This document shows positions 54,051 through 64,000 of a stretch of DNA of 64,000 nucleotides, piece by piece. The position numbers and the translations under genes were made by a program. The DNA comes from Myxococcota bacterium. GTDB lineage: Bacteria > Myxococcota_A > SURF-8 > G963663525. The stretch lies in contig CAXXVK010000067.1 in the NCBI GenBank assembly GCA_963676915.2, positions 1 through 64,000 of the forward strand, in the 5' to 3' direction. Every line of letters begins with the position of its first letter. The first letter of the stretch is position 1. The notes beneath the pieces were generated by a model that was given only the letters and a program-made list of their open reading frames with translations, was not told where the DNA came from and made no database searches.

Positions 54051-55622
54051 ATGTCAACTGCAGATTTCATCGCTTATTCCATTGTTATCGGCGGAGTTCT
54101 CGCGTTTGCCGCGATTTTCTGGAGTTATTTCAAAGGACTGCGAAAATCTCCTCGCGACATGTGGTTCCTGTTCGGCTACAAATTCATCGAATATTCCGCC
54201 TACGGCGCGATGAATATGGCCATCATCCTCTGGTTGTCCAAAGACTGCGGCTTGGGGGATATCGTAGCGGGTAGCTACATTTCAGCCTGGTCGATGATGC
54301 TTTCGGTCATGGCGATGGTCGCCGGTGCGCTGGTCGATACCATCGGCATCAAACGAACATTGGTGATCAGCATCGTATTTTTGCTGATTTCCCGGTTCTT
54401 TATGGCCTTTGTCACCGATCCGGTCCTGGTTTTCTTCTTGGGATTTGTTCCGCTGGCGATCGGTTTTGCCATCGTCGGACCGCTTGTTTCGGTCGCGATC
54501 AAACGTTTCACGACAAAAGAAGGCGCCGCCCTGGGTTTCGGCTTGTTTTACGTGGTGATGAACATTGCTTACGCCGTCGGTGGCTGGTTGTTCGACTGGC
54601 TACGAGAAACTTTTGCAGAGCGCGATACTTTAGGCAAGATCATCAACGAAAACTTCGGTACCGAACTGATGGGAATGCATTTTACCACCTATCAGCTTTT
54701 CTTTGTCATGGGTTTCATTTTCACCCTGGGTAGCCTGTTCATCGCCATTTTCATTCGCGATGGCGTGGAAATGATGGATGACGGCGAGATCGTGGTTCAT
54801 CCTAAAACCGAATATGGCAGTGGACTTGAGTCTATTCGCAATGCCGCCATTGAAACCGCCAAAATGATCAAATCGGTCATTACGGAAAGATATTTCTGGA
54901 TTTTCTTGGGTATGTTGGCATTGACCCTGTTCGTTCGTTTTATTTTCTTCCATTTTCATTATACCTTCCCCAAATACGGCATTCGCGTCCTTGGCGAAGG
55001 AGCGAAAATCGGTTCGATTTACGGTGTCCTCAATCCGGTGCTAATCGTGTTTCTCGTGCCGCTGGTTGCCGCTTTTACGAAAAAAATCAGTTCGTACAAA
55101 ATGATGATCGTGGGGTCGGTTATTTCGGCTGGTTCGTGTTTCATCGCGACCATCCCCGCAGAAAGCCTTGCTCATTTGACCGATTCCGTTCTAGGCGAGT
55201 TGATTTTCATTAAATGGCTGGGAATGGCCGATACCATGGAAGCCTTGCTGCAGAATCCTCCCGTTCCCGAATACTGGCCGTTGATTTTCTTCATTACAGT
55301 GTTCACTGTGGGTGAAGCCATCTGGTCACCACGCCTGATGCAATTTACGGCGGAAATCGCACCGAAAGGAAAAGAAGGAACCTATATCGCTTTATCGGTG
55401 CTTCCTTTCTTCTTCGCAAAATTTGTGGTCGGGCCGATGTCGGGTTTGTTGTTGGATAAGTACGTTCCGGTAGACGAAGCCGGAAAGGCTATGGCTCCCT
55501 ATGCGGACCACCACATGGTGTGGATCTGGATCGGTGGCATGGCGATCTTCACTCCGATCGGGCTGCTGGTCTTCCGCAAGCTGTTCACACATAGCAACCC
55601 GGACGGCACCACAACGCTGTAA
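54051..55622 (+). CDS. MFS transporter (POT/peptide-transporter-like)
   Basis: KFIEYSAYG, GALVDTIGIKR, GFGLFYVVMNI, TVGEAIWSPR...APKGKEGTY; 12 or more TM helices. Confidence 0.88.
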   Translation: MSTADFIAYSIVIGGVLAFAAIFWSYFKGLRKSPRDMWFLFGYKFIEYSAYGAMNMAIILWLSKDCGLGDIVAGSYISAWSMMLSVMAMVAGALVDTIGIKRTLVISIVFLLISRFFMAFVTDPVLVFFLGFVPLAIGFAIVGPLVSVAIKRFTTKEGAALGFGLFYVVMNIAYAVGGWLFDWLRETFAERDTLGKIINENFGTELMGMHFTTYQLFFVMGFIFTLGSLFIAIFIRDGVEMMDDGEIVVHPKTEYGSGLESIRNAAIETAKMIKSVITERYFWIFLGMLALTLFVRFIFFHFHYTFPKYGIRVLGEGAKIGSIYGVLNPVLIVFLVPLVAAFTKKISSYKMMIVGSVISAGSCFIATIPAESLAHLTDSVLGELIFIKWLGMADTMEALLQNPPVPEYWPLIFFITVFTVGEAIWSPRLMQFTAEIAPKGKEGTYIALSVLPFFFAKFVVGPMSGLLLDKYVPVDEAGKAMAPYADHHMVWIWIGGMAIFTPIGLLVFRKLFTHSNPDGTTTL

Positions 55623-55693
55623 CCTGTCGAGTTCCTTCGGCTTCGTTTACGCGAGGCCGAAGAAAATTCAGATGCATTGACGAAATCTTGGAA

Positions 55694-58195
55694 TCAGTGA
55701 ATCGGATACGTGATTTTCTCGGCTGATTCCGGCAGGTTGTCCAAAAACGTTCTGTTTCGCTCAACCCACTGAAAAAGCCTATCGAGTTCTTCTCCATTGA
55801 GGCGATACAAGGCGATGTCTACCTCTGGAATCCAGGGACCGAGGTTTTCGATGTATCCACCGTCCGAGTACCGCCGATTCACGAAATGCGATTGCACGAC
55901 GGGCGGGGTTTTCGCCACACGGCGGACGGCTTCGCAGAGGGGATCGAGGTCCATGACTCGTGGGACGTGATAGCAACCCATTCCGAAATAAAAATAGACA
56001 TCCTTGTAATTTCTAGGTTTTTCGAAGAATTTCCCGAAATCCGCGAGCAACAGTTTCTTTCCTTCGAGATACGCCGCCCCCTGCAAAAGGTCGGCTGTGC
56101 GGAACAGTCGCTCGGTCGTGACGATTCCGCCGGGTTGTCCCGAGTATCGGCTGTCTGAGATCAGCAGGTGGCTGTCATTGGGTAGGACTTCGACCATGCG
56201 TTGCACGAATTCCGTTTCATTCTGGATATTGTGCCGTGTATCGGCGGTGAAACGCCTGTGCGTGACCAACGGGGATAACAAACAAGCCGCCAGAGCTACG
56301 GCCAGCGCCGCACGCAAATGCCCTTTCAGAGGGAGATTTTCGAGGAAAAATGCTGCTCCGACTCCGACTGATACGCACAGCAGCACCAGATAGCTCAGTT
56401 GGTACCGCAATCCTTCGGCCAGAATCAAGCCCGACTGGATGAGAATCAGTTGCGTTCCAAAGCCTGGAAGCAGCAAAAGCAGTGGTAATGCCACGGGAAT
56501 ATTTCGTTGAGTTCCCAAGGCTTTCGGGAGCAAAGAAAGGAGCCATAACGGGAAAAACACGAGGGGATAAAGCCCCACATCCATCCAGTAATTCCAATAC
56601 TCGCTTAACCATCCGTATTTTAGTCCGGTCGGCATATTGAAAGTTGTAACGAAAGGATACGGAACAAGTGGGTTGGGAGTTGCAACCAGCAACGGTCCTA
56701 GCCCCCGCGAGATCACAGCAAACAGCATCGTGGTCGTCAACGTGATGACGAATGCGATCCACAGCCAGCGACTGCGGGGCCATCGAGAAAATGCGGTGCG
56801 ACTGGACAGCGCCAACAGACCGAATGCCGTACACGTCACGGCGAAACTCAGCAGAATGGAAAAGAAATGACGCCTCGTTTCGGGATCGACGGTGTTCAGG
56901 TCGTTCGTCATCAAATAAAGATGCGGGAAAAGAAACAGAATCGAAACGAGTAACAAAGGCCAGCGTTTCAACAGGCGTCCCAAGGCATTTCGTTCGAGAA
57001 TCATGAAAAACTGAATCATCCCCGCCATCGCCGCCACGGTGGACGACTCTCCCCGACACTGCACGAACAGAAGCAGCGTGCAAAGAAACAAGGCAAGGTC
57101 CAGATTCTTGTCGCGCTCCAGCCAGGCGAGAAGATGCGCGAAACTCGCGGCCAACAACAGGCCCGCCATCGGACCGATCACAAGACCGTTGGAGAAGAAA
57201 ATCAGCGGTGGAAAAGCCAGAACGGCCAGGGCGGAAAAACTGCCTCCCCAAACGGTTCCGCTCAAGCGCCGACCGGCGGCATACGCGGGAATCACAGCCA
57301 GCGCACCCACCACGGCGTTTGCGGTGAATACCAACCGGCTGGAAGGTCCGAAAAGCTGCATCAGCAGATACAACGGCAGACGATAGGTGGGTTTGTAGCC
57401 CTGCCCGAGGTATACGTCCCAACCCTCAAAAGTCCAGATCGCCATGTCTTTGAGGTGGGTGAAATCTCCATGCCCGGAACCAATCGGCAACCGTTCTGAT
57501 GACAGTAGCCGAACCGCAAGTGCTGCCACGAAAAAGAAAGCCATTACGAGGAGTTCCCTCGTTTTTCCGTGCTTGATTCCACCTGCGAGAAGCCATGCAA
57601 GTCCCAATAGATAAAATGCCCAGACCGCCAGGATGACGATCTTGTTGACCAGAAACATCGGTTGATGATCGATGCCGTGATGGGGAAATGGCGTGAAAAT
57701 GTTCTGTTCGTTCGGTTGCAGTCGTTTGCGAAGATCGGGGCGAAGATCGGCGATGTTGCGGGCTTGTGTCGTGACGAATTCCGGGCATTTGTACAAATGA
57801 GGATCTTCCCCGAGACGGTTCAACGTGTCCTGAATGGCCTGATCCCACCTTGTTTTGTCGGTCGCATTGGAAGTGATTTCCGAAGAGGTCGCCAAATCTT
57901 TGCTATCGAGAATTCCGAACCAGACCAATGCTTTGGGTGGTCCTTCGGTTTCTCCGAGCAAAAGAATGGCGCCTTCTTGCGCCTTTTCCACATGTTGAAC
58001 CGGGAGGTTTCGTTCCTTCAGATGATCGGCCAGCGTCGAGAAATCGCAAGGAGATGTTGAATTCTGCGCCCAGGATTCTTGTGGCTGTGAAGCGATCGTT
58101 AGTAACAACGTTACCGCCAGCAACCAAAGGAATCCGAAGCGAAAAACGGGGAATTTGCTGCGATATTTCGCGTTTTTTCGCAACATCTCGGTCAT
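55694..58195 (-). CDS. Multi-TM membrane protein resembling GT-C (PMT/ArnT-like) glycosyltransferases
   Basis: Periplasmic N-domain, then ALAVRLL...GHGDF, YKPTY..., NAVVGALAVIPAYAAGRRL, QCRGE and RYQL, as in GT-C folds; its start overlaps the upstream stop (ATGA). Confidence 0.6.
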   Translation of the reverse strand: MTEMLRKNAKYRSKFPVFRFGFLWLLAVTLLLTIASQPQESWAQNSTSPCDFSTLADHLKERNLPVQHVEKAQEGAILLLGETEGPPKALVWFGILDSKDLATSSEITSNATDKTRWDQAIQDTLNRLGEDPHLYKCPEFVTTQARNIADLRPDLRKRLQPNEQNIFTPFPHHGIDHQPMFLVNKIVILAVWAFYLLGLAWLLAGGIKHGKTRELLVMAFFFVAALAVRLLSSERLPIGSGHGDFTHLKDMAIWTFEGWDVYLGQGYKPTYRLPLYLLMQLFGPSSRLVFTANAVVGALAVIPAYAAGRRLSGTVWGGSFSALAVLAFPPLIFFSNGLVIGPMAGLLLAASFAHLLAWLERDKNLDLALFLCTLLLFVQCRGESSTVAAMAGMIQFFMILERNALGRLLKRWPLLLVSILFLFPHLYLMTNDLNTVDPETRRHFFSILLSFAVTCTAFGLLALSSRTAFSRWPRSRWLWIAFVITLTTTMLFAVISRGLGPLLVATPNPLVPYPFVTTFNMPTGLKYGWLSEYWNYWMDVGLYPLVFFPLWLLSLLPKALGTQRNIPVALPLLLLLPGFGTQLILIQSGLILAEGLRYQLSYLVLLCVSVGVGAAFFLENLPLKGHLRAALAVALAACLLSPLVTHRRFTADTRHNIQNETEFVQRMVEVLPNDSHLLISDSRYSGQPGGIVTTERLFRTADLLQGAAYLEGKKLLLADFGKFFEKPRNYKDVYFYFGMGCYHVPRVMDLDPLCEAVRRVAKTPPVVQSHFVNRRYSDGGYIENLGPWIPEVDIALYRLNGEELDRLFQWVERNRTFLDNLPESAEKITYPIH

Positions 58196-61100
58196 GTCCG
58201 CCCTTTTTTCTTTGCCAGTTTTCCTTTGACGGCCCCGAATCGTCGTTTCAAACCGAAACGTTTCCGTTTTTCGCCTGTTGCTCGTGGATGTTCTCGCAGC
58301 CCGAGCCATTCCTGGTCCAGATTTCGGCATTTGCGCGGAAGTGGTCGCTCCAGACGTTCACCCTGGGCGACCATCTCCCGGACGGTCGCCAACAAGGCGT
58401 CCATCGCCTGTTTTACCTGTGCTTCGCTGATATTCGGCCCGAGATAAAGGCGAAGCGTTTCTCCCTTGAACGGTCCGTATCCACTCCCTATCGTAACGCG
58501 ATTTTCCAGTCGTTCGCGCAGGCGGGATACTTCGATGTCTACCCCCAGCAGATGCGCCAGCACCCCGGAGCGATCCTCGACACGCTGTACCGCTTGCACG
58601 AGATGCGGCGTATTTTCGATGGCTTCTTGCACCACTTTCATTTTGCGTTCCGTCTCTTTTTGGATGGAACGCAAACCGCCTCGTTCGAGGTAGTCTTCCA
58701 ACGCTTCACCCAGTTGGAGAATACCTCGTAAGTTATGGTAGTGACCGGCAAACTGCTCTTTCTCCATTTGAGGAAACGTTCGATAGACCATGGCGACATC
58801 TTCGGGGCTGCGTTCGCTTTCTCGTCGTCTGGCCACTTCCATCGCTTTCGGGGAAACGATCAGCACGCCCAACCCGGCGGGACAACCCATGAATTTCTGT
58901 ACCGAGCCGAAATACACGTCGATGTCTTTCCATTCCCGTCGCAGATATCCGAATTCGCTGGTGCCGTCCACGATGAAGAGAAACGGATCTGTTGTGGCAC
59001 GTTTTCGTTTGATTTTTCCTGGTTTATTCACCCGGTTGCGAATCGCCTGGATGAGTGCCCCAACATCGGTTTGTACCGCCGTGCTCGTTTCGTGTCCCGT
59101 GATGAAAAAACCGACGCTCCGGTCCGACCGCTTCAGATTGGACGCGGGAAGTTTGCTCAACATTTCCGAGGCGATGGACTGTAGCTGGCCGTTCTCACCT
59201 TCTCCCCAACGTAATCGTACCGATTTGACACGCCCCGTACCGAAACGGCGGGCGACATCCAGCATTCGTTCTCCGAACGCTCCTTTGACTCCCACGATTC
59301 CGAAATCCACATCGAGACTTTCGACCGTCTGTTCCATGGCCTGCGTGGCGGAACCGGTGAAGAAGATGCTGTAATTTTTCGGAAGATTCAGGTACTTGCG
59401 CAAGAGGCTTTCGACTTCCAAAGCGGCTTGTTTACGAGCTTCGGGTTGCCCGGTGAGATCTGCAAGGCGGCGCTCGGTTTCCATGCTGCGTTTAAGTATC
59501 CGCCGGTTGATTTGTGCCGGACCGGGGTTGAGCGTGAAAAAATCTTGCTGGTTCCGAAGCCGTTCTTTCGCCTTTTCAGGAGAGAGAGAAGATGTCTGTC
59601 CCAACGCCAGCGCCACGCGACATCCCAACTCGGCAATCGCCTGTATTTTGGGTGTTTCAAGCGTTTCGTGTGGGCGCTCGTCCATTTCGAGCAGAGAATG
59701 CATGTAACCGATTTGATTGCGGCTGGCGGTTTTTCGAGCCACTTCCAAAGTTTCGGCATGACAGACGAGCAGCCCCAGTTCTTCCTGCAGGCCGAAAAGC
59801 TCGCCCGAAAACACAAAGGCAGCCGCTTTACGACGCATCGCCGCCGAAGGACGTTCTAGAGTTTGCATGACCAGGATTTTGTGAATCTCGGTCCAGGCGG
59901 GATCGTCCAGAAGTTTTGGGTTGTTGGTTGCGACGGCTTGAACTTCGGCGGGGGGCTGGTGTTGTTCTTTGTCGCGCAAGTCCAACGCAACGCCGCCTTT
60001 TCGGCGATTGACCAACGCTTTGAAACAGGCGACCACCGCTTTTTCTGTCGAATCGGTGAAAAACACCCGTTCGTCGGGTTCCAGACCCAGCCATTCGCGC
60101 AGCAATCCCAGAGTTTCGGACAAGATTCGCATGCCTTCCGGGCTACGGTGAGAATGCTGGCACCATAGCAAAATCGAAGTATGCAACCGAGCGATAGCCG
60201 GTGCGGAGGTCGGTAGCGACGGGTCCGAGGCGAAAGCGTTGAGAATGCCATGCTCCAGGCGTGGCGGGTGTGCGTGCAGTTTCAAGCGACTCGTTGCGCC
60301 GAACGTCCTTCCTCCATAGGTTTGTGTGTACCGGTACAGTTCTTCGGTTCGTTCCGGGTCGCGTCGCTCCAGCCAGCGTGCATACGCTGTGGAAAGGTGT
60401 TTTTCACCCGGTTCGAACTCGATACCGAACTGTCCGTGCAGGCTTTCGAGGTGTTTTATGAGCGTTTTTTTGCGATCTTGCAGAAAAACGTAGGCTTCTG
60501 AGGCGCGCTTGCGGGTGTCCTCGTCCTCGCCTTCGAGAAAATATGTGGCACGAATGTGGGGATCGATTCCCCCGCTGACGGCTTCCTGCACCATGCCGGG
60601 ATGAGCATGCCCGTAAATGTAGACACGGAACTGACGGTCCCGCAGATCCTGAACGTAGGCCCAGTACACTTCCATCACGGCCTTGTAGGCTCGTTCACGC
60701 AGGGCGGGATCGTCGCCGGTAATTCTGCAATTGAAGTCGGTTGAGGTGGTGAACCCCTTCCATTTCGAGGCTCGGGTCATCTCGGGAATGGCTTCGCGCA
60801 TTCGTTTTAACGCACGCATTTCGCTGGGCAGGAAATACACGATATCTTCGTCCGCGTCGTCGTCGTGATCGTCCGAGCGGTAGATGTCCCGCCACTTCTG
60901 CAAACCGCGAATCGCGGCGAAAAGGTTGTCAGGTTCTTCACGACCTTCCGGCGGTTCTTCGAACAGCGCTTCGAGAAGGTCGATCATTTCGTCCTCGGAC
61001 ACGTCGGTGGTGCAGTTGACCAACAGCCCGATATGGCATTTCGCATCGCGCATGGTTTCCAATAGACTGCCGATGCGACCGCGTTCTTCGCTGTCTTCCC

Positions 61101-62151
61101 GCAAACTGCCATAGGTGGCGCGTAACTCGTCGCGGGTGATGATCTCGAATCCTTTGAGCAATACCTGTCCTCGTGCCGCGACCAGTTTTCGACCGTCGGG
61201 GGAGTCTTGAAACACGGCACGGGCGTAGGGATCGAGCACCGACATCACGCGGGGCAGATGGTTGACCATCCCCGCGTACTGTTTGCCGATACCACCGGGA
61301 AGCGGAATGAAAAAGCCGAATTCGTTGACACCCTCTCGAATGACTTCGAGCGTCACCTCCGTAACCAGTCCGGCGCTACCGCTTAGGCCGACTTGCATTT
61401 TCGCCTCGTCGCCTTTCAGACGGCGCACCATGCCGGAGCCGTCTACCAGCGTGACGGCATGCAGGTTGAAGCGGGCGTTGGCGCGTACCGGTCCCTGGCT
61501 GCCGTTGCAGACCACCGCGCCGATCTGGGCCTGGTTGAAGGTGGTCAGATCGAGAAAGACCGAATGACCCGCCCCCAGAATGTCCACTAGCGCTTCGTTG
61601 ATTTCGGCGGGCGTCAATCCTGCCCAGGCACGTACGCGATGGTTGATCGACGGGTTGTGACTTCGGTATACGACCACTTTGTTTTTTAGAGTCGGTGAAT
61701 CGGGAACGACGGCTTCGAACACTTCACTATCGACGGCATCTTGAAGGGAAACATTTTCCAAACGACCGTTGGGATGCACCAAAAGACCTACAAACCCTTT
61801 CAATCCGTGCAATTTCGCTTTTTTCTGCACCTGAAAAGCCCCGACCGCGCTTGTCAGACTGCCGATGGCTATGGCACCGAAATTTTCTTCATGGGCTATC
61901 GATACGGTTTTTTTTGCGTCTTCGGTGCTTTTGATACGAACCAGACAATGGCTTTCCACTGGCTTGCCGGAATCGTCGTACAGGTTTTCTTCATAGGGCG
62001 TGAAACCGGCCTGTCGATACAGGCTTTGTATCCGTTCCCAATCTCTATCATCTTCGAAAAGAAAGGGTTTCCCTGGCGTTCGTCGTTTGTGCGGCCGTAG
62101 TTTGGCCAGCCGGGTTTCCCATTTCGCCCATTGTTTTCGGCGCTTGTTCAT
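58192..62151 (-). CDS. Fusion protein: FAD-linked oxidase (PCMH/GlcD type) + degenerate class V aminotransferase domain + PLP-Lys-bearing SerC-like aminotransferase
   Basis: IGSLTSAVGA, VRAWAG, AQIGAVVCNGSQG, VGLSGSAGLVTEVTL, YGHAHPG..GGIDPH and GEKH (oxidase); SHRSPE and ETP (middle domain); NPGPAQI, TGSATQAME, HETST, VDGTS, FGSVQKFMGCPAGLG and GSGYG..LR (C-terminal domain). Start at MNKRRK with SD GGGAG. Confidence 0.85.
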   Translation of the reverse strand: MNKRRKQWAKWETRLAKLRPHKRRTPGKPFLFEDDRDWERIQSLYRQAGFTPYEENLYDDSGKPVESHCLVRIKSTEDAKKTVSIAHEENFGAIAIGSLTSAVGAFQVQKKAKLHGLKGFVGLLVHPNGRLENVSLQDAVDSEVFEAVVPDSPTLKNKVVVYRSHNPSINHRVRAWAGLTPAEINEALVDILGAGHSVFLDLTTFNQAQIGAVVCNGSQGPVRANARFNLHAVTLVDGSGMVRRLKGDEAKMQVGLSGSAGLVTEVTLEVIREGVNEFGFFIPLPGGIGKQYAGMVNHLPRVMSVLDPYARAVFQDSPDGRKLVAARGQVLLKGFEIITRDELRATYGSLREDSEERGRIGSLLETMRDAKCHIGLLVNCTTDVSEDEMIDLLEALFEEPPEGREEPDNLFAAIRGLQKWRDIYRSDDHDDDADEDIVYFLPSEMRALKRMREAIPEMTRASKWKGFTTSTDFNCRITGDDPALRERAYKAVMEVYWAYVQDLRDRQFRVYIYGHAHPGMVQEAVSGGIDPHIRATYFLEGEDEDTRKRASEAYVFLQDRKKTLIKHLESLHGQFGIEFEPGEKHLSTAYARWLERRDPERTEELYRYTQTYGGRTFGATSRLKLHAHPPRLEHGILNAFASDPSLPTSAPAIARLHTSILLWCQHSHRSPEGMRILSETLGLLREWLGLEPDERVFFTDSTEKAVVACFKALVNRRKGGVALDLRDKEQHQPPAEVQAVATNNPKLLDDPAWTEIHKILVMQTLERPSAAMRRKAAAFVFSGELFGLQEELGLLVCHAETLEVARKTASRNQIGYMHSLLEMDERPHETLETPKIQAIAELGCRVALALGQTSSLSPEKAKERLRNQQDFFTLNPGPAQINRRILKRSMETERRLADLTGQPEARKQAALEVESLLRKYLNLPKNYSIFFTGSATQAMEQTVESLDVDFGIVGVKGAFGERMLDVARRFGTGRVKSVRLRWGEGENGQLQSIASEMLSKLPASNLKRSDRSVGFFITGHETSTAVQTDVGALIQAIRNRVNKPGKIKRKRATTDPFLFIVDGTSEFGYLRREWKDIDVYFGSVQKFMGCPAGLGVLIVSPKAMEVARRRESERSPEDVAMVYRTFPQMEKEQFAGHYHNLRGILQLGEALEDYLERGGLRSIQKETERKMKVVQEAIENTPHLVQAVQRVEDRSGVLAHLLGVDIEVSRLRERLENRVTIGSGYGPFKGETLRLYLGPNISEAQVKQAMDALLATVREMVAQGERLERPLPRKCRNLDQEWLGLREHPRATGEKRKRFGLKRRFGAVKGKLAKKKGRT

Positions 62152-62459
62152 ACGTCTCCCCACTCGAACGAGATGATTTATCCCGCATGTTTCATGCTTC
62201 GTTCGAAAGTGTACTGTAAGCCACGGCTGGTGGTCCAATATCTTTTCGCCAAACTCGCCAAAAGAATGCACCGAAAAACACCAAAATGTTAAAAATTCGT
62301 TTGAAATTTTACCTTCTTTACCTTTATACTTAAACTTTAATGGTGTATATTAATTATAAATATAAATAGGTACACCACGTAGCCGGAGAAAATGCGGGTA
62401 CGCATTGCTTTTTATTGACATTTAGGCTTGCCGTCATTATGCGTGCAGGAAAGTTGACC

Positions 62460-62729
62460 ATGCCGGAATCCATCACAGAATTCAAGCATGAATCCATTCA
62501 GGATCGAAAATCCATCGTAAAATACTTGAAAACCCTCTGGGAAGGCATCGACAACGGCCGTATCGCTTTTCACAGCGAGGAAGACGAGATCGAACTCATT
62601 CCCCCGGACCTGATGAACCTCAAGCTTCGGGTCGTTCATGCCGAGGACCGCTCGAAAATCATTTTGCAAATCGGCTGGAAACCCAATGAAGGCAAAGAAA
62701 AGCCCGGCAACCTGATCGTCAGGACGTAA
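62460..62729 (+). CDS. Amphi-Trp domain protein
   Basis: EFKHESIQD...IVKYLKTLWEGIDNGRI...IELIP...LQIGWK, with the conserved terminal Trp. Confidence 0.85.
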   Translation: MPESITEFKHESIQDRKSIVKYLKTLWEGIDNGRIAFHSEEDEIELIPPDLMNLKLRVVHAEDRSKIILQIGWKPNEGKEKPGNLIVRT

Positions 62730-62735
62730 CCCGCC

Positions 62736-64000
62736 ATGCCTCCTTTACGTGCACTTAGAGAAAATTTCAGTCTGATGGTGGTCGAGGTCGGCAAGCAGGT
62801 CGAAGAAACCCGTTTCGCCTTGACCGACTGGGACGGCAGCCTCGGAGAAAGCATTCTCAATCGGGACGATTACATCGACCGCATGAAGGATTTCATCACC
62901 CGCAACGTGTTTCGCAAGCTGGCGGAATCGCGTGATTTCGACAAATCTGTGGTCAAAATTCTCCAGGCGGGAATCGTCATCGTCAACAACCTCGAAAACA
63001 TCGCAGACTTTTGCACGAACATCGTCGGCCAGATTTGCCATCTTGGCGACCCGGATTTCCTGGATCGCTACGATTTCAAACTGCATTTTCATTATGTCAA
63101 TAAAGCGTTGTCCATCGTCGAAAAGACACTGTTTACTCAGGATCTGGATGCGGCTCTGGAAATCTGCAAATGCGAATTTGCCTTGGATGATCTGTATAAA
63201 AAGGACTTTCAAAGCATTTTGCAACAGCTTCAAAACTGTTCGTCGGAAGATCCCAAAGAAAACCCTGCGCAAAAGCTGGTTACGGCTCTGTTGATTTTCC
63301 GTTATCTCGAACGAATGGGCGATTGTCTGCTGAATATCGGCGAGGCGATCATCGAATCCGTGATCGGAGAAAAGCTCAAAATTCACCAGTATTTAGCGCT
63401 GCGCAACAGTTTCGACGTCAGCAGCGACGCCTCCTCGCCGGGAATTCCTGTTCACCACACCCATTTCGAAACCATCGGCGAAACCCGATCGGGTTGTCGT
63501 ATCGGGCGCGTTCGTCAACCCACCACGGATCAACACAGCCACTGGGCGATTTTCAAGGACGGAAATCTTGGAAAACTGACGCGGGAAAAGGAGAACATCG
63601 AAACTTGGGAACGCCTTTGTCCTGGCTTACCTCCGAAACTGTTCGGTTTTCAGCCGAAAGGCAACTATGCCTCGCTGTTGTTGGAATATTTGGGCGGCAT
63701 CAATTTTCAGGAAATCATTCTGGAACCCGATTCCAACCTGCTGGCCGATGGCATGAACCAGTTGAAAAAACTGCTGGAAGTGCTTTGGGAGATGACCTGG
63801 CGGGACGAACCCGCTCAAGCCGGTTTCATGGAGCAGCTTCTCGACCGCCTGTCAAGCGTCTATCGGTTGCATCCTGCCTTCAATACCGCCACTGCCGGAA
63901 TCAACGATTTGGAGTTGCCGTCGACGCATCGGTTGATACAGGAATTGAACGATATCGAGCGAACGCTTTTTGCGCCGTTTTCCGTTTTCATTCATGGGGA
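62736..64000 (+). CDS. PhoU-domain / aminoglycoside-phosphotransferase-like kinase fusion (partial, runs off the window)
   Basis: Manual translation is open from ATG 62736 to the end: RDDYID, NLENIAD and YLERMGD (PhoU repeats); ETRSGCRI, IFKDG, LLLEYLGG and ...FIHG(D) (kinase). Absent from the ORF track. Confidence 0.88.
   Translation, partial: MPPLRALRENFSLMVVEVGKQVEETRFALTDWDGSLGESILNRDDYIDRMKDFITRNVFRKLAESRDFDKSVVKILQAGIVIVNNLENIADFCTNIVGQICHLGDPDFLDRYDFKLHFHYVNKALSIVEKTLFTQDLDAALEICKCEFALDDLYKKDFQSILQQLQNCSSEDPKENPAQKLVTALLIFRYLERMGDCLLNIGEAIIESVIGEKLKIHQYLALRNSFDVSSDASSPGIPVHHTHFETIGETRSGCRIGRVRQPTTDQHSHWAIFKDGNLGKLTREKENIETWERLCPGLPPKLFGFQPKGNYASLLLEYLGGINFQEIILEPDSNLLADGMNQLKKLLEVLWEMTWRDEPAQAGFMEQLLDRLSSVYRLHPAFNTATAGINDLELPSTHRLIQELNDIERTLFAPFSVFIHG

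Follow-up and report, generated by a model that had tools for sequence, protein, structure and literature searches.

What might a bacterium do with a gene that joins a divergent flavoprotein to an aminotransferase? The question is raised by a 64,000-nucleotide stretch of a Myxococcota genome (assembly GCA_963676915.2, contig CAXXVK010000067.1; hereafter the window, meaning the whole stretch), on the minus strand of which one uninterrupted open reading frame (ORF) occupies 58192..62271 and encodes 1359 residues when counted from a GTG. A first-pass annotation of the window, made from its letters alone, had reported here a flavin adenine dinucleotide (FAD)-linked domain of the 2-hydroxyacid oxidase type, with PCMH-type and cap motifs, fused to an aminotransferase. 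Both sets of motifs do lie in one ORF with the aminotransferase (58192-62151, minus strand), but the two-part architecture was incomplete, as a degenerate second aminotransferase copy lies between the two domains that had been named. Our best explanation is that the gene encodes a three-module enzyme that would convert a hydroxy acid into an oxo acid and then into an amino acid, with 3-phosphoglycerate as the best-guess substrate, and we put the probability of this explanation as a whole at roughly 0.45. In the family assignments and the three-module architecture themselves we have high confidence.

The ATG at 62151, which lies 40 codons after the GTG of the longest ORF, is the likely start codon, because a database form of the protein (P0002; 1319 residues, 100% identity) begins there and a GGAG is found 7 nt upstream. 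All residues are numbered from this ATG; the span 60270-62151 that was originally assigned to the FAD-linked domain corresponds to residues 1-627 of the 1319-residue protein. The gene and its predicted modules are as follows.

58192..62151, minus strand: whole fusion gene, comprising a flavoprotein module, a pseudo-aminotransferase, an aminotransferase and a basic tail (1319 codons plus TGA; from the ORF, P0002 and GGAG)
61282..61959, minus strand: predicted PCMH-type FAD-binding domain, residues ~65-290 (from hhalign to GlcD residues 59-232, FAD_binding_4, motifs, and AlphaFold2 with Foldseek)
60397..61281, minus strand: predicted cap or substrate-binding domain, residues ~291-585 (from conserved residues and motif register against human D-2-hydroxyglutarate dehydrogenase as well as GlcD)
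59557..60189, minus strand: degenerate class-V aminotransferase copy, residues 655-865 (from BLASTP, hhalign, a profile match to 3ffr and conservation)
58306..59556, minus strand: live class-V aminotransferase domain, residues 866-1282 (from Pfam, PDB 3ffr, AlphaFold2, Foldseek and conservation)

The fusion is genuine. It is uninterrupted, with no internal stops, in 13 protein clusters and in seven loci from named metagenome-assembled genomes (MAGs), and the assembly artefact that the first-pass annotation had raised against its own proposal is thereby excluded. The 13 clusters, found in a word-indexed search of 5.8 billion, are 829-1350 residues long and 38-78% identical (78% for P0003, a close relative of the window protein); 11 measure 1238-1350 residues and the others are one of 829 and one of 1022 residues (partial according to the source). 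The only names among them are 'hypothetical protein' (uncultured bacterium ACD_51C..., Candidatus Peregrinibacteria). A HMMER search of 1.84 billion cluster representatives returned 76 proteins at an expectation value (E) ≤ 1e-3, 30 of these at E ≤ 1e-30. At least 1100 residues are present in 27 (fused), 32 are of stand-alone length (450-700 residues) and 17 have other lengths, mostly fragments. Close stand-alone forms of the flavoprotein module amounted to three fragments, and distant ones appeared only with HMMER. The seven loci come from a species-representative genome set without the window's own genome and belong to one Myxococcota MAG (55% identity), three Candidatus Peribacteria, two Candidatus Peregrinibacteria and one unclassified bacterium (34%, shorter). 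In a FastTree phylogeny of the flavoprotein columns (midpoint-rooted without an outgroup, support values left aside), stand-alone-length proteins form one clade and fused proteins the other, which only suggests that the fused forms share a single origin. We found no paper on the three-module architecture in the open literature (subscription journals lay outside the coverage). The architecture search that had been recommended for this locus thus yielded a fusion that is neither common nor characterised: it is rare, and it carries no name or description in the databases and open literature searched.

Structure prediction gives the clearest view of the N-terminal module. An AlphaFold2 model of residues 1-660, built from a 46-sequence alignment, reached a mean predicted local distance difference test score (pLDDT) of 88.1 and a predicted template modelling score (pTM) of 0.87. 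Against the PDB, Foldseek ranked in order LctD of A. woodii (7qh2_C, E 3.8e-18), an isopod D-lactate dehydrogenase (9qit, 5e-18), human D-2-hydroxyglutarate dehydrogenase (D-2-HGDH; 6lpn, 1.1e-17), 3pm9 and mouse LDHD (8jde, with a template modelling (TM) score of 0.74), these top matches having E values from 4e-18 to 3e-17 and target-normalised TM scores of 0.62-0.74. Alkyl-dihydroxyacetone-phosphate (alkyl-DHAP) synthase followed at 2.5e-16 (TM 0.50-0.63) and cytokinin oxidases at about 3e-15, and the margin of the hydroxyacid dehydrogenases over other VAO families, although modest in E value, is consistent over many entries. D-2-HGDH, LDHD and LctD share the two-domain fold at a Foldseek probability of 1.00 and target TM scores of 0.69-0.74. 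By its model, then, the module of about 640 residues is a VAO/PCMH flavoprotein fold closest to D-2-hydroxyacid dehydrogenases, from which it differs in its low sequence identity to the structural matches (10-16%), about 180 extra residues, the fused aminotransferase modules and, in the fused clade, some 10 residues inserted between the two cap histidines.

The same module is only marginally visible to sequence methods. Alignment with hhalign to E. coli GlcD gave E 0.0026 and a probability of 11%, over the FAD-binding domain only, and when the PDB was searched with the family profile, LctD, a 'FAD/FMN-containing dehydrogenase' and alkyl-DHAP synthase came up no better than E 0.02-0.09. NCBIfam had no match for residues 1-660. 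Pfam FAD_binding_4 was found at E ≤ 1e-3 in 14 of 24 long relatives and 23 of 39 shorter ones, many near or under the cut-off; Aminotran_5 was detected in seven of the long relatives, and no family at all in five of the long and 16 of the shorter ones. The signal nevertheless lies far above chance, as shown by key residues that never vary among the 46 aligned sequences, by the confident AlphaFold2 model and by a Foldseek list headed by D-2-hydroxyacid dehydrogenases. The FAD-binding domain carries loops that are conserved among the aligned relatives, namely IGSLTSAVGAF (T100, S101), LDLTT..IGAVV.NGSQGP.R (D201, T203, G220) and GLSGSAG..TE (G255, G258), and FAD loops of this kind are a feature shared with the D-2-hydroxyacid dehydrogenases, including GlcD.

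The candidate active-site residues of the flavoprotein module fall in four short segments.

60796-60798, minus strand: R452 (invariant 46/46)
60607-60615, minus strand: Y513-G514-H515 (invariant 46/46)
60550-60558, minus strand: H532-I-R534 (H532 and R534 invariant 46/46)
60400-60405, minus strand: E583-K584 (invariant 46/46)

Two of these segments contain motifs that were quoted in the first-pass annotation, YIYGHAHPGMVQEAVSGGIDPHIRAT (Y513...R534) and EPGEKHLST (E583-K584); its first cap motif reads YGHAHPG...GGIDPHIR in the protein. In the corresponding positions, the GlcD sequence taken from the E. coli genome reads FHAGDGNMH and SGEHGIG. In the 46-sequence alignment (A2), whose members span only 19-81% identity, the invariant positions are D59, T203, G220, G255, G258, R452, D472, Y513, G514, H515, H532, R534, E583 and K584, and R460 and K463 are conserved among close relatives. 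Of the 76 database matches, 59 contain the pattern YGH..H.R..EK, and the other 17 consist of 16 fragments of less than 430 residues and one 595-residue protein.

Human D-2-HGDH provides a reference for these positions. As described in the available text of PMC7801405, His434, His441 and Glu475 are Zn2+ ligands, Arg386 holds the C1 carboxylate, His476 acts as base, and the distal carboxylate is bound by Tyr432, Asn443, Lys401 and Thr390; Arg386, His434, His441, Glu475 and His476 are reported there as essential and strictly conserved in D-lactate dehydrogenase (D-LDH) and GlcD. In our proposed register, R452 would correspond to Arg386, Y513-G-H515 to Tyr432-x-His434, H532-x-R534 to His441-x-Asn443 and E583-K584 to Glu475-His476. 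The carboxylate Arg and the metal-site His, His and Glu of the subfamily would thus all be kept (R452, H515, H532 and E583, four of the five catalytic residues), as they are at matching motif positions in GlcD, and Arg takes the place of Asn443 in 46 of 46 sequences. The assignment to a GlcD/D-LDH/D-2-HGDH-type flavoprotein with a divergent cap, originally drawn from motifs, is borne out by the invariant residues, the FAD motifs, the model and the Foldseek ranking. The divergent GEKH is also present, but it is not a local oddity of this protein, since the exchange of His for Lys is family-wide (46/46).

Such a deviant active site might mean that the flavoprotein-like module is not a redox enzyme of this kind at all, and serves a regulatory or ligand-sensing role, or that it is a non-redox flavin enzyme resembling alkyl-DHAP synthase, or even that the fusion is an artefact. 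The lysine in place of the catalytic histidine, the Pfam scores below threshold, the strong structural match to alkyl-DHAP synthase and the lack of an electron-acceptor partner among the window ORFs or the seven loci would all fit a non-redox role. We regard this family of explanations as extremely improbable: neither the FAD-loop motifs nor four of the five catalytic residues vary among 46 sequences with as little as 19% identity, which argues for a working active site, and the recurrence of the fusion in 13 clusters and seven MAG loci without stops speaks against an artefact.

The C-terminal half is better recognised by sequence. Pfam Aminotran_5 matched the live domain at E 7e-12, and its best PDB match was 3ffr, deposited as a phosphoserine aminotransferase (PSAT; SerC) of Cytophaga hutchinsonii, at 1.5e-17 with the single sequence and 1.1e-40 with the family profile; 2dr1 and then several alanine/serine-glyoxylate aminotransferases followed. 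AlphaFold2 modelled residues 621-1319, covering both copies, at pLDDT 90.2 and pTM 0.89, and Foldseek again ranked 3ffr first (6.5e-24, TM 0.87, 23% identity). The matches in Pfam, NCBIfam, the PDB and Foldseek uphold the original description of a fusion with a class-V, SerC-like aminotransferase. The key elements are NPGP, GSAT (S934), GHETST, D1062, the pyridoxal 5'-phosphate (PLP) lysine K1086 (58894-58896), G-Y1225-G and R1234, and the residues required of class-V (fold-type I) enzymes, that is, the PLP Lys (K1086), the ring-nitrogen Asp (D1062) and the carboxylate Arg (R1234), are all present. Among 34 fused relatives, the GSAT Ser is conserved in 32, Asp1062 in 33, Lys1086 in 30 and Arg1234 in 32. 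With 3ffr-type Cytophagales aminotransferases the domain shares not only the fold but also GSAT, ETS, the Asp, S-x-Q-K and G-Y-G...R.

Within class V, the domain is SerC-like with an AGXT-type segment (G-x-F-G-x-R), and it lies outside every curated SerC equivalog. The AGXT-type PDB entries 1vjo (3.5e-09) and 3zrp (6.8e-08) matched with Foldseek TM scores of 0.74-0.80, below that of 3ffr. Among stand-alone proteins, the domain has its nearest relatives in Cytophagales, with about 358 residues and 25-30% identity, some of them named phosphoserine aminotransferase by their source. Six of these scored best on SerC models (E 1e-29 to 1e-38), yet reached only 100-133 bits against NCBIfam cut-offs of 253-444. 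No paper on the function of 3ffr was found in the same open-literature coverage. The family profile also matched PDB 9os7_A, a Mycoplasma penetrans methionyl-tRNA synthetase with a fused class-V aminotransferase-like domain (2.8e-17; also a Foldseek match).

The middle module proved to be a second, degenerate copy of the same domain. BLASTP aligned it with the live domain in two collinear segments (E 0.001 and 0.03), and hhalign of its alignment (A4) against that of the live domain (A5) gave E 3e-5 and a probability of 73.5% over 147 columns. The A4 profile, built from eight sequences, matched 3ffr residues 158-273 at 7e-5, with the SHRS segment of 3ffr collinear but weak, and in the A2 profile the SHRS stretch of the module matched residues 41-107 of PSAT 3qbo at about 9e-4. 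The PLP lysine is missing: the window protein has SGEL where the live copy has SVQK, and the two candidate lysine columns contain Lys in at most 2 of 34 relatives. The aspartate position is Gln in the window protein and variable among relatives. Two loops are retained.

60145-60153, minus strand: S-H668-R669 of the degenerate copy (conservation counts)
59650-59658, minus strand: E-T833-P834 of the degenerate copy (conservation counts)

In these loops, the His is kept in 30, the Arg in 30, the Thr in 32 and the Pro in 31 of the 34 fused relatives. The live copy lacks both, as in the profile alignment it has an 8-residue gap opposite ..GVISHR of 3ffr and HN.RG where 3ffr has TPETPN; the stand-alone 3ffr-type proteins carry SHR and TP in the same chain, whereas in the fusion the two loops are confined to the dead copy upstream.

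These loops are the ones that dimeric relatives lend across the subunit interface. According to the available text of PMC6797613, His41' and Arg42' of the other subunit contact the substrate side chain in E. coli PSAT, and in AGT1 the partner's Thr250' binds the PLP phosphate. The partner-subunit His-Arg pair of PSAT thus has a counterpart in H668/R669, but in the dead copy, from where we infer that it would reach the live active site. Because the dead copy keeps the partner-donated His-Arg and Thr-Pro loops and the live domain has lost exactly those, the two copies are probably a tandem duplication with complementary loss that forms an intramolecular pseudo-dimer with one active site; a fixed placement of the copies would agree with the high pTM obtained when both were modelled together. 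Glycine decarboxylase P-protein likewise consists of two homologous fold-type-I halves of which one binds PLP, in some species within one polypeptide, and it is the only precedent we know of for a PLP enzyme in which one of two homologous halves is dead. The likeness is conceptual only, as P-protein belongs to a different family with different chemistry and has no flavoprotein module.

Together these features suggest how the protein might work. The product would be a cytoplasmic enzyme of three modules, the first of which (residues ~45-640) would belong to the D-2-hydroxyacid dehydrogenase branch of VAO/PCMH flavoproteins and act as a dehydrogenase that needs FAD and probably a divalent metal. 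The substrate would be anchored to Arg452 by its C1 carboxylate, while His515, His532 and Glu583 would hold a metal that polarises the 2-hydroxyl; Lys584 would stand at the place of the usual catalytic His base, and a distal pocket would be lined by Tyr513 and Arg534 together with Arg460 and Lys463. Modules 2 and 3 would have arisen when a SerC-like class-V aminotransferase of the 3ffr type was duplicated in tandem. Of the two copies, the catalytically dead first one would contact the substrate side chain through His668-Arg669 and the PLP phosphate through Thr833, and the second, with its Lys, Asp and carboxylate Arg, would do the chemistry. A D-2-hydroxy acid would then be oxidised to the 2-oxo acid, with transfer of its electrons to some acceptor, and the same polypeptide would transaminate this product to the L-amino acid. 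We give sequential coupling of this kind, from hydroxy to keto to amino group, an even chance.

Which acid might this be? Because R534, R460 and K463 add cationic residues to the predicted dehydrogenase pocket, the substrate probably carries a second anionic group, either phosphate or carboxylate. D-2-hydroxy acids with a phosphate are 3-phospho-D-glycerate and 4-phospho-D-erythronate, and those with a second carboxylate are D-2-hydroxyglutarate and D-malate. Our tentative choice, which we consider more doubtful than probable, is 3-phospho-D-glycerate, which would be converted via 3-phosphohydroxypyruvate into O-phospho-L-serine, an entry to serine synthesis independent of nicotinamide adenine dinucleotide (NAD). 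The first-pass annotation had offered a flavin-dependent replacement for SerA as one of two possibilities. A still more tentative proposal is that such flavin-driven serine entry, with a built-in dead dimer partner, replaces both SerA and SerC in some Peregrinibacteria and in a Myxococcota-like lineage. Some of the genomic context touches 3-phosphoglycerate. In three of the seven loci (L002, L003 and L006), the fusion gene is flanked by dnaK and grpE-hrcA, and GAPDH lies at a distance of about 2-3 kb; in two Peregrinibacteria/Peribacteria MAGs (L004, 2479-14304; L005, 937-14469), pta, ackA, pflB, pflA, the fusion gene, a nucleoside/AMP-phosphorylase-family gene and an IF-2B-family isomerase gene follow each other on one strand, in what is possibly a fermentation and nucleotide-salvage operon. 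In Ca. Peribacter riflensis, dnaK adjoins GAPDH without the fusion gene.

Phosphate is also what 4-phospho-D-erythronate would bring to the pocket, and a fusion of PdxR with SerC was the other possibility first considered for this gene. The erythronate would be oxidised and then transaminated to 4-phosphohydroxy-L-threonine for vitamin B6 synthesis by the pathway dependent on 1-deoxy-D-xylulose 5-phosphate. The available text of PMC9997740 describes PdxR of Sinorhizobium meliloti as an FAD-dependent 4-phosphoerythronate dehydrogenase of the GlcD family that replaces PdxB and whose product SerC acts on, and it notes that PdxB and PdxR are missing from many lineages with PdxA and PdxJ. The fusion resembles PdxR as a broadly GlcD-type flavoprotein, and its predicted anion-binding distal pocket would suit a phosphate; it differs from PdxR in that the latter is a stand-alone protein assigned to PF02913 by network analysis in that account (we compared PdxR by description only), whereas the fusion family matches PF02913 in none of 64 proteins and no pdxA, pdxJ or dxs was found among the ORFs of the window or of the seven loci. 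Most carriers are moreover Peregrinibacteria or Peribacteria, described in the available text of PMC4736985 as lacking many cofactor pathways, and 76 representatives are far too few to fill a widespread PdxB hole. We therefore consider a role in vitamin B6 synthesis very improbable.

A second carboxylate would lead to a different arrangement, in which the modules do not act in sequence: the flavoprotein would oxidise D-2-hydroxyglutarate (or D-malate), and the aminotransferase would serve as a phosphoserine aminotransferase. Both would clear products of a separate NAD-type SerA, namely 3-phosphohydroxypyruvate and D-2-hydroxyglutarate, and both would yield 2-oxoglutarate, pulling the unfavourable SerA reaction. 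Tyr513 matches Tyr432 of human D-2-HGDH, which is replaced in D-LDH (PMC7801405, in the text available), Arg534 at the Asn443 position would suit a distal carboxylate, and 6lpn is among the top Foldseek matches (1.1e-17). In Pseudomonas, D-2-hydroxyglutarate oxidation is coupled to serine synthesis, as reported in the accessible parts of PMC10025160 and PMC10034468, and a Peribacteria annotation (supplement file 2 of PMC4736985) lists serA without 'phosphoserine', serC or serB, although the presence of the fusion in that genome is unconfirmed. Conversely, Lys401 and Asn443, strict in D-2-HGDH orthologues according to the same portion of PMC7801405, are unmatched in the fusion, the Asn being Arg and the Lys being of uncertain register. 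No serA lies near the fusion gene in the window or the seven loci, and fusions of non-sequential enzymes are, in our judgement, less usual. We consider this arrangement distinctly unlikely.

The substrate might instead be small and not phosphorylated, with D-lactate going via pyruvate to L-alanine, glycolate via glyoxylate to glycine, or D-glycerate via hydroxypyruvate to serine; alternatively, both modules might feed pyruvate to fermentation. LctD, D-LDH and LDHD are among the top structural matches of the flavoprotein, the aminotransferase also resembles the alanine/serine-glyoxylate enzymes 1vjo, 3zrp and 6pk1, and it is matched by the BhcA model at 9e-11. The pta-ackA-pflB-pflA genes stand directly before the fusion gene in L004 and L005, and making alanine, serine and glycine is described as possible in Peribacteria in the available text of PMC4736985. 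Nevertheless, R534 with R460 and K463 and the retained His-Arg clamp are easier to reconcile with a substrate that has a second anionic group than with lactate or glycolate, and the nearest stand-alone aminotransferases score best on SerC rather than AGXT-type models. Such small acids are thus fairly unlikely substrates.

Against the explanation that we prefer, a coupled three-module enzyme acting on 3-phosphoglycerate, a number of observations must be set. Some of them concern family membership. Pfam FAD_binding_4 (PF01565) matched the window protein at residues 170-245 with E 4e-4, its 20.5 bits falling short of the 26.4 bits required, and the FAD-oxidase_C cap (PF02913) was found in none of 64 proteins (the window protein and 63 relatives) at E ≤ 1e-3, the window protein having been scanned up to E = 1. 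The SerC models of NCBIfam scored far below their cut-offs (serC_1, 42.3 against 443.6 bits; PRK05355, 34.5 against 253; serC_2, 25.7 against 448; serC_3, 21.7 against 402), and the BhcA aspartate-glyoxylate model scored much like them (41 bits against a cut-off of 650, E 9e-11). Other observations concern the active sites. The catalytic base of the dehydrogenases (His476, in GEHG) is replaced by Lys (GEK) in all 46 sequences, because of which the mechanism may differ from that of the canonical enzymes. At the place of the second His-Arg pair of E. coli PSAT (His328/Arg329), which we take to bind phosphate, the fusion family has G-Y-G (Tyr in 31 of 34), as has 3ffr. In four of the 34 relatives the lysine or the His-Arg pair is missing, and the homologue in L007 (4364-7696, 1110 residues) has HPD for SHR in the dead copy and lacks the PLP lysine and most aminotransferase motifs in its C-terminal part; it may be a decaying or re-purposed version. 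Furthermore, the pocket positions and residue correspondences come from sequence register rather than superposed coordinates, the pseudo-dimer geometry from that register and pTM rather than measured distances, and the whole chemistry is read from residues, with binding of FAD, PLP, metal and substrate predicted.

The surroundings of the gene and the biology of its carriers add to these objections. There is no conserved neighbourhood, as the seven loci represent three different contexts, and neither SerA, SerB, PdxA, PdxJ nor an Etf family member, nor any other electron-acceptor gene, was found among the 49 window ORFs or the 96 neighbouring ORFs in these loci. Three loci point to pyruvate, L004 and L005 by the genes upstream and L001 by a pyruvate carboxylase gene directly downstream of the fusion gene; the neighbours in L007 are unrelated. 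Peribacteria are described as being without most of the respiratory chain (PMC4736985, in the text available). The annotation table of Ca. Peribacter riflensis lists serA (K00058), an AGXT-type class-V aminotransferase and glyA (PMC4736985, supplement file 2), and it contains no entry for 'phosphoserine', serC or serB. Because serA is in this table, a replacement of SerA is not obviously needed in the Peribacteria class, with the proviso that the fusion is unconfirmed in that genome. The gene RIFOXYC2_FULL_PER-ii_58_32_69 of Ca. Peribacter riflensis, annotated as a 1266-residue 'FAD dependent oxidoreductase' with only a weak crtU assignment, matches the Peribacteria fusions in length and may or may not be an orthologue.

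Beyond its three modules, the gene has a tail and neighbours with features of their own.

58195..58305, minus strand: strongly basic C-terminal tail of the fusion protein, ~37 residues, ending ..KRKRFGLKRRFGAVKGKLAKKKGRT (from the sequence; low pLDDT with a terminal helix)
58192..58195, minus strand: ATGA overlap of the fusion-gene TGA (58192-58194) with the ATG of the next gene (read from the sequence)
55694..58195, minus strand: downstream multi-pass membrane protein, 833 residues (ORF; context only)
62415-62729, plus strand: Amphi-Trp domain protein, divergent from the fusion gene (window ORF scan)
62736-63998, plus strand: PhoU-domain protein with a long extra C-terminal part, directly after the Amphi-Trp gene and running off the window

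The basic tail is common to the closest relatives P0003 and P0004 only and is absent from the Peregrinibacteria homologues; it could bind membranes or nucleic acid. The ATGA overlap suggests co-transcription or translational coupling with the downstream gene. The 833-residue membrane protein encoded there has no match in Pfam, NCBIfam or the PDB sequences and is not beside the fusion gene in any of the seven loci. We had considered a lipid-linked amino-sugar pathway, with a DprE1-like oxidase and a transaminase feeding the membrane protein as a GT-C transferase, and dropped it because the membrane protein matches nothing and is not conserved beside the fusion, and because the nearest structures of the flavoprotein are hydroxyacid dehydrogenases. 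Upstream of the fusion gene lies an AT-rich spacer of about 260 nt. Rfam gave no matches at the gathering score across the window (no tRNA, rRNA or riboswitch) and none in 62050-62500 at E ≤ 1, and a scan of 55400-62800 gave promoter and terminator counts at shuffle background (3 against 3.5 and 15 against 10.4, respectively). No Pfam family was assigned to 17 of the 49 scanned window ORFs, many of them large.

Each catalytic module of the fusion belongs to a known superfamily, and what is unusual is the three-module fusion itself, the flavoprotein family with GEK and Arg, and the built-in dead aminotransferase partner. The protein appears to work like a D-2-hydroxyacid dehydrogenase joined to a SerC/AGXT-type aminotransferase but falls outside the curated families of both. 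Its flavoprotein family, with GEK instead of GEH and an Arg in the predicted distal pocket, is missed by the Pfam cap model and includes about 32 representatives of stand-alone length. The dead copy would be a clean natural case of complementary loss after tandem duplication, in which one copy keeps only the parts donated by a partner and the other only those required in the active subunit. Provided that its two activities are coupled, the enzyme would offer an undescribed NAD-free route from a hydroxy acid to an amino acid that sidesteps the unfavourable SerA-type equilibrium and avoids release of a labile oxo acid. It would also give a function to a conserved 'hypothetical' protein of about 1,300 residues in genomes of the Candidate Phyla Radiation, where amino-acid metabolism is thought to be minimal.

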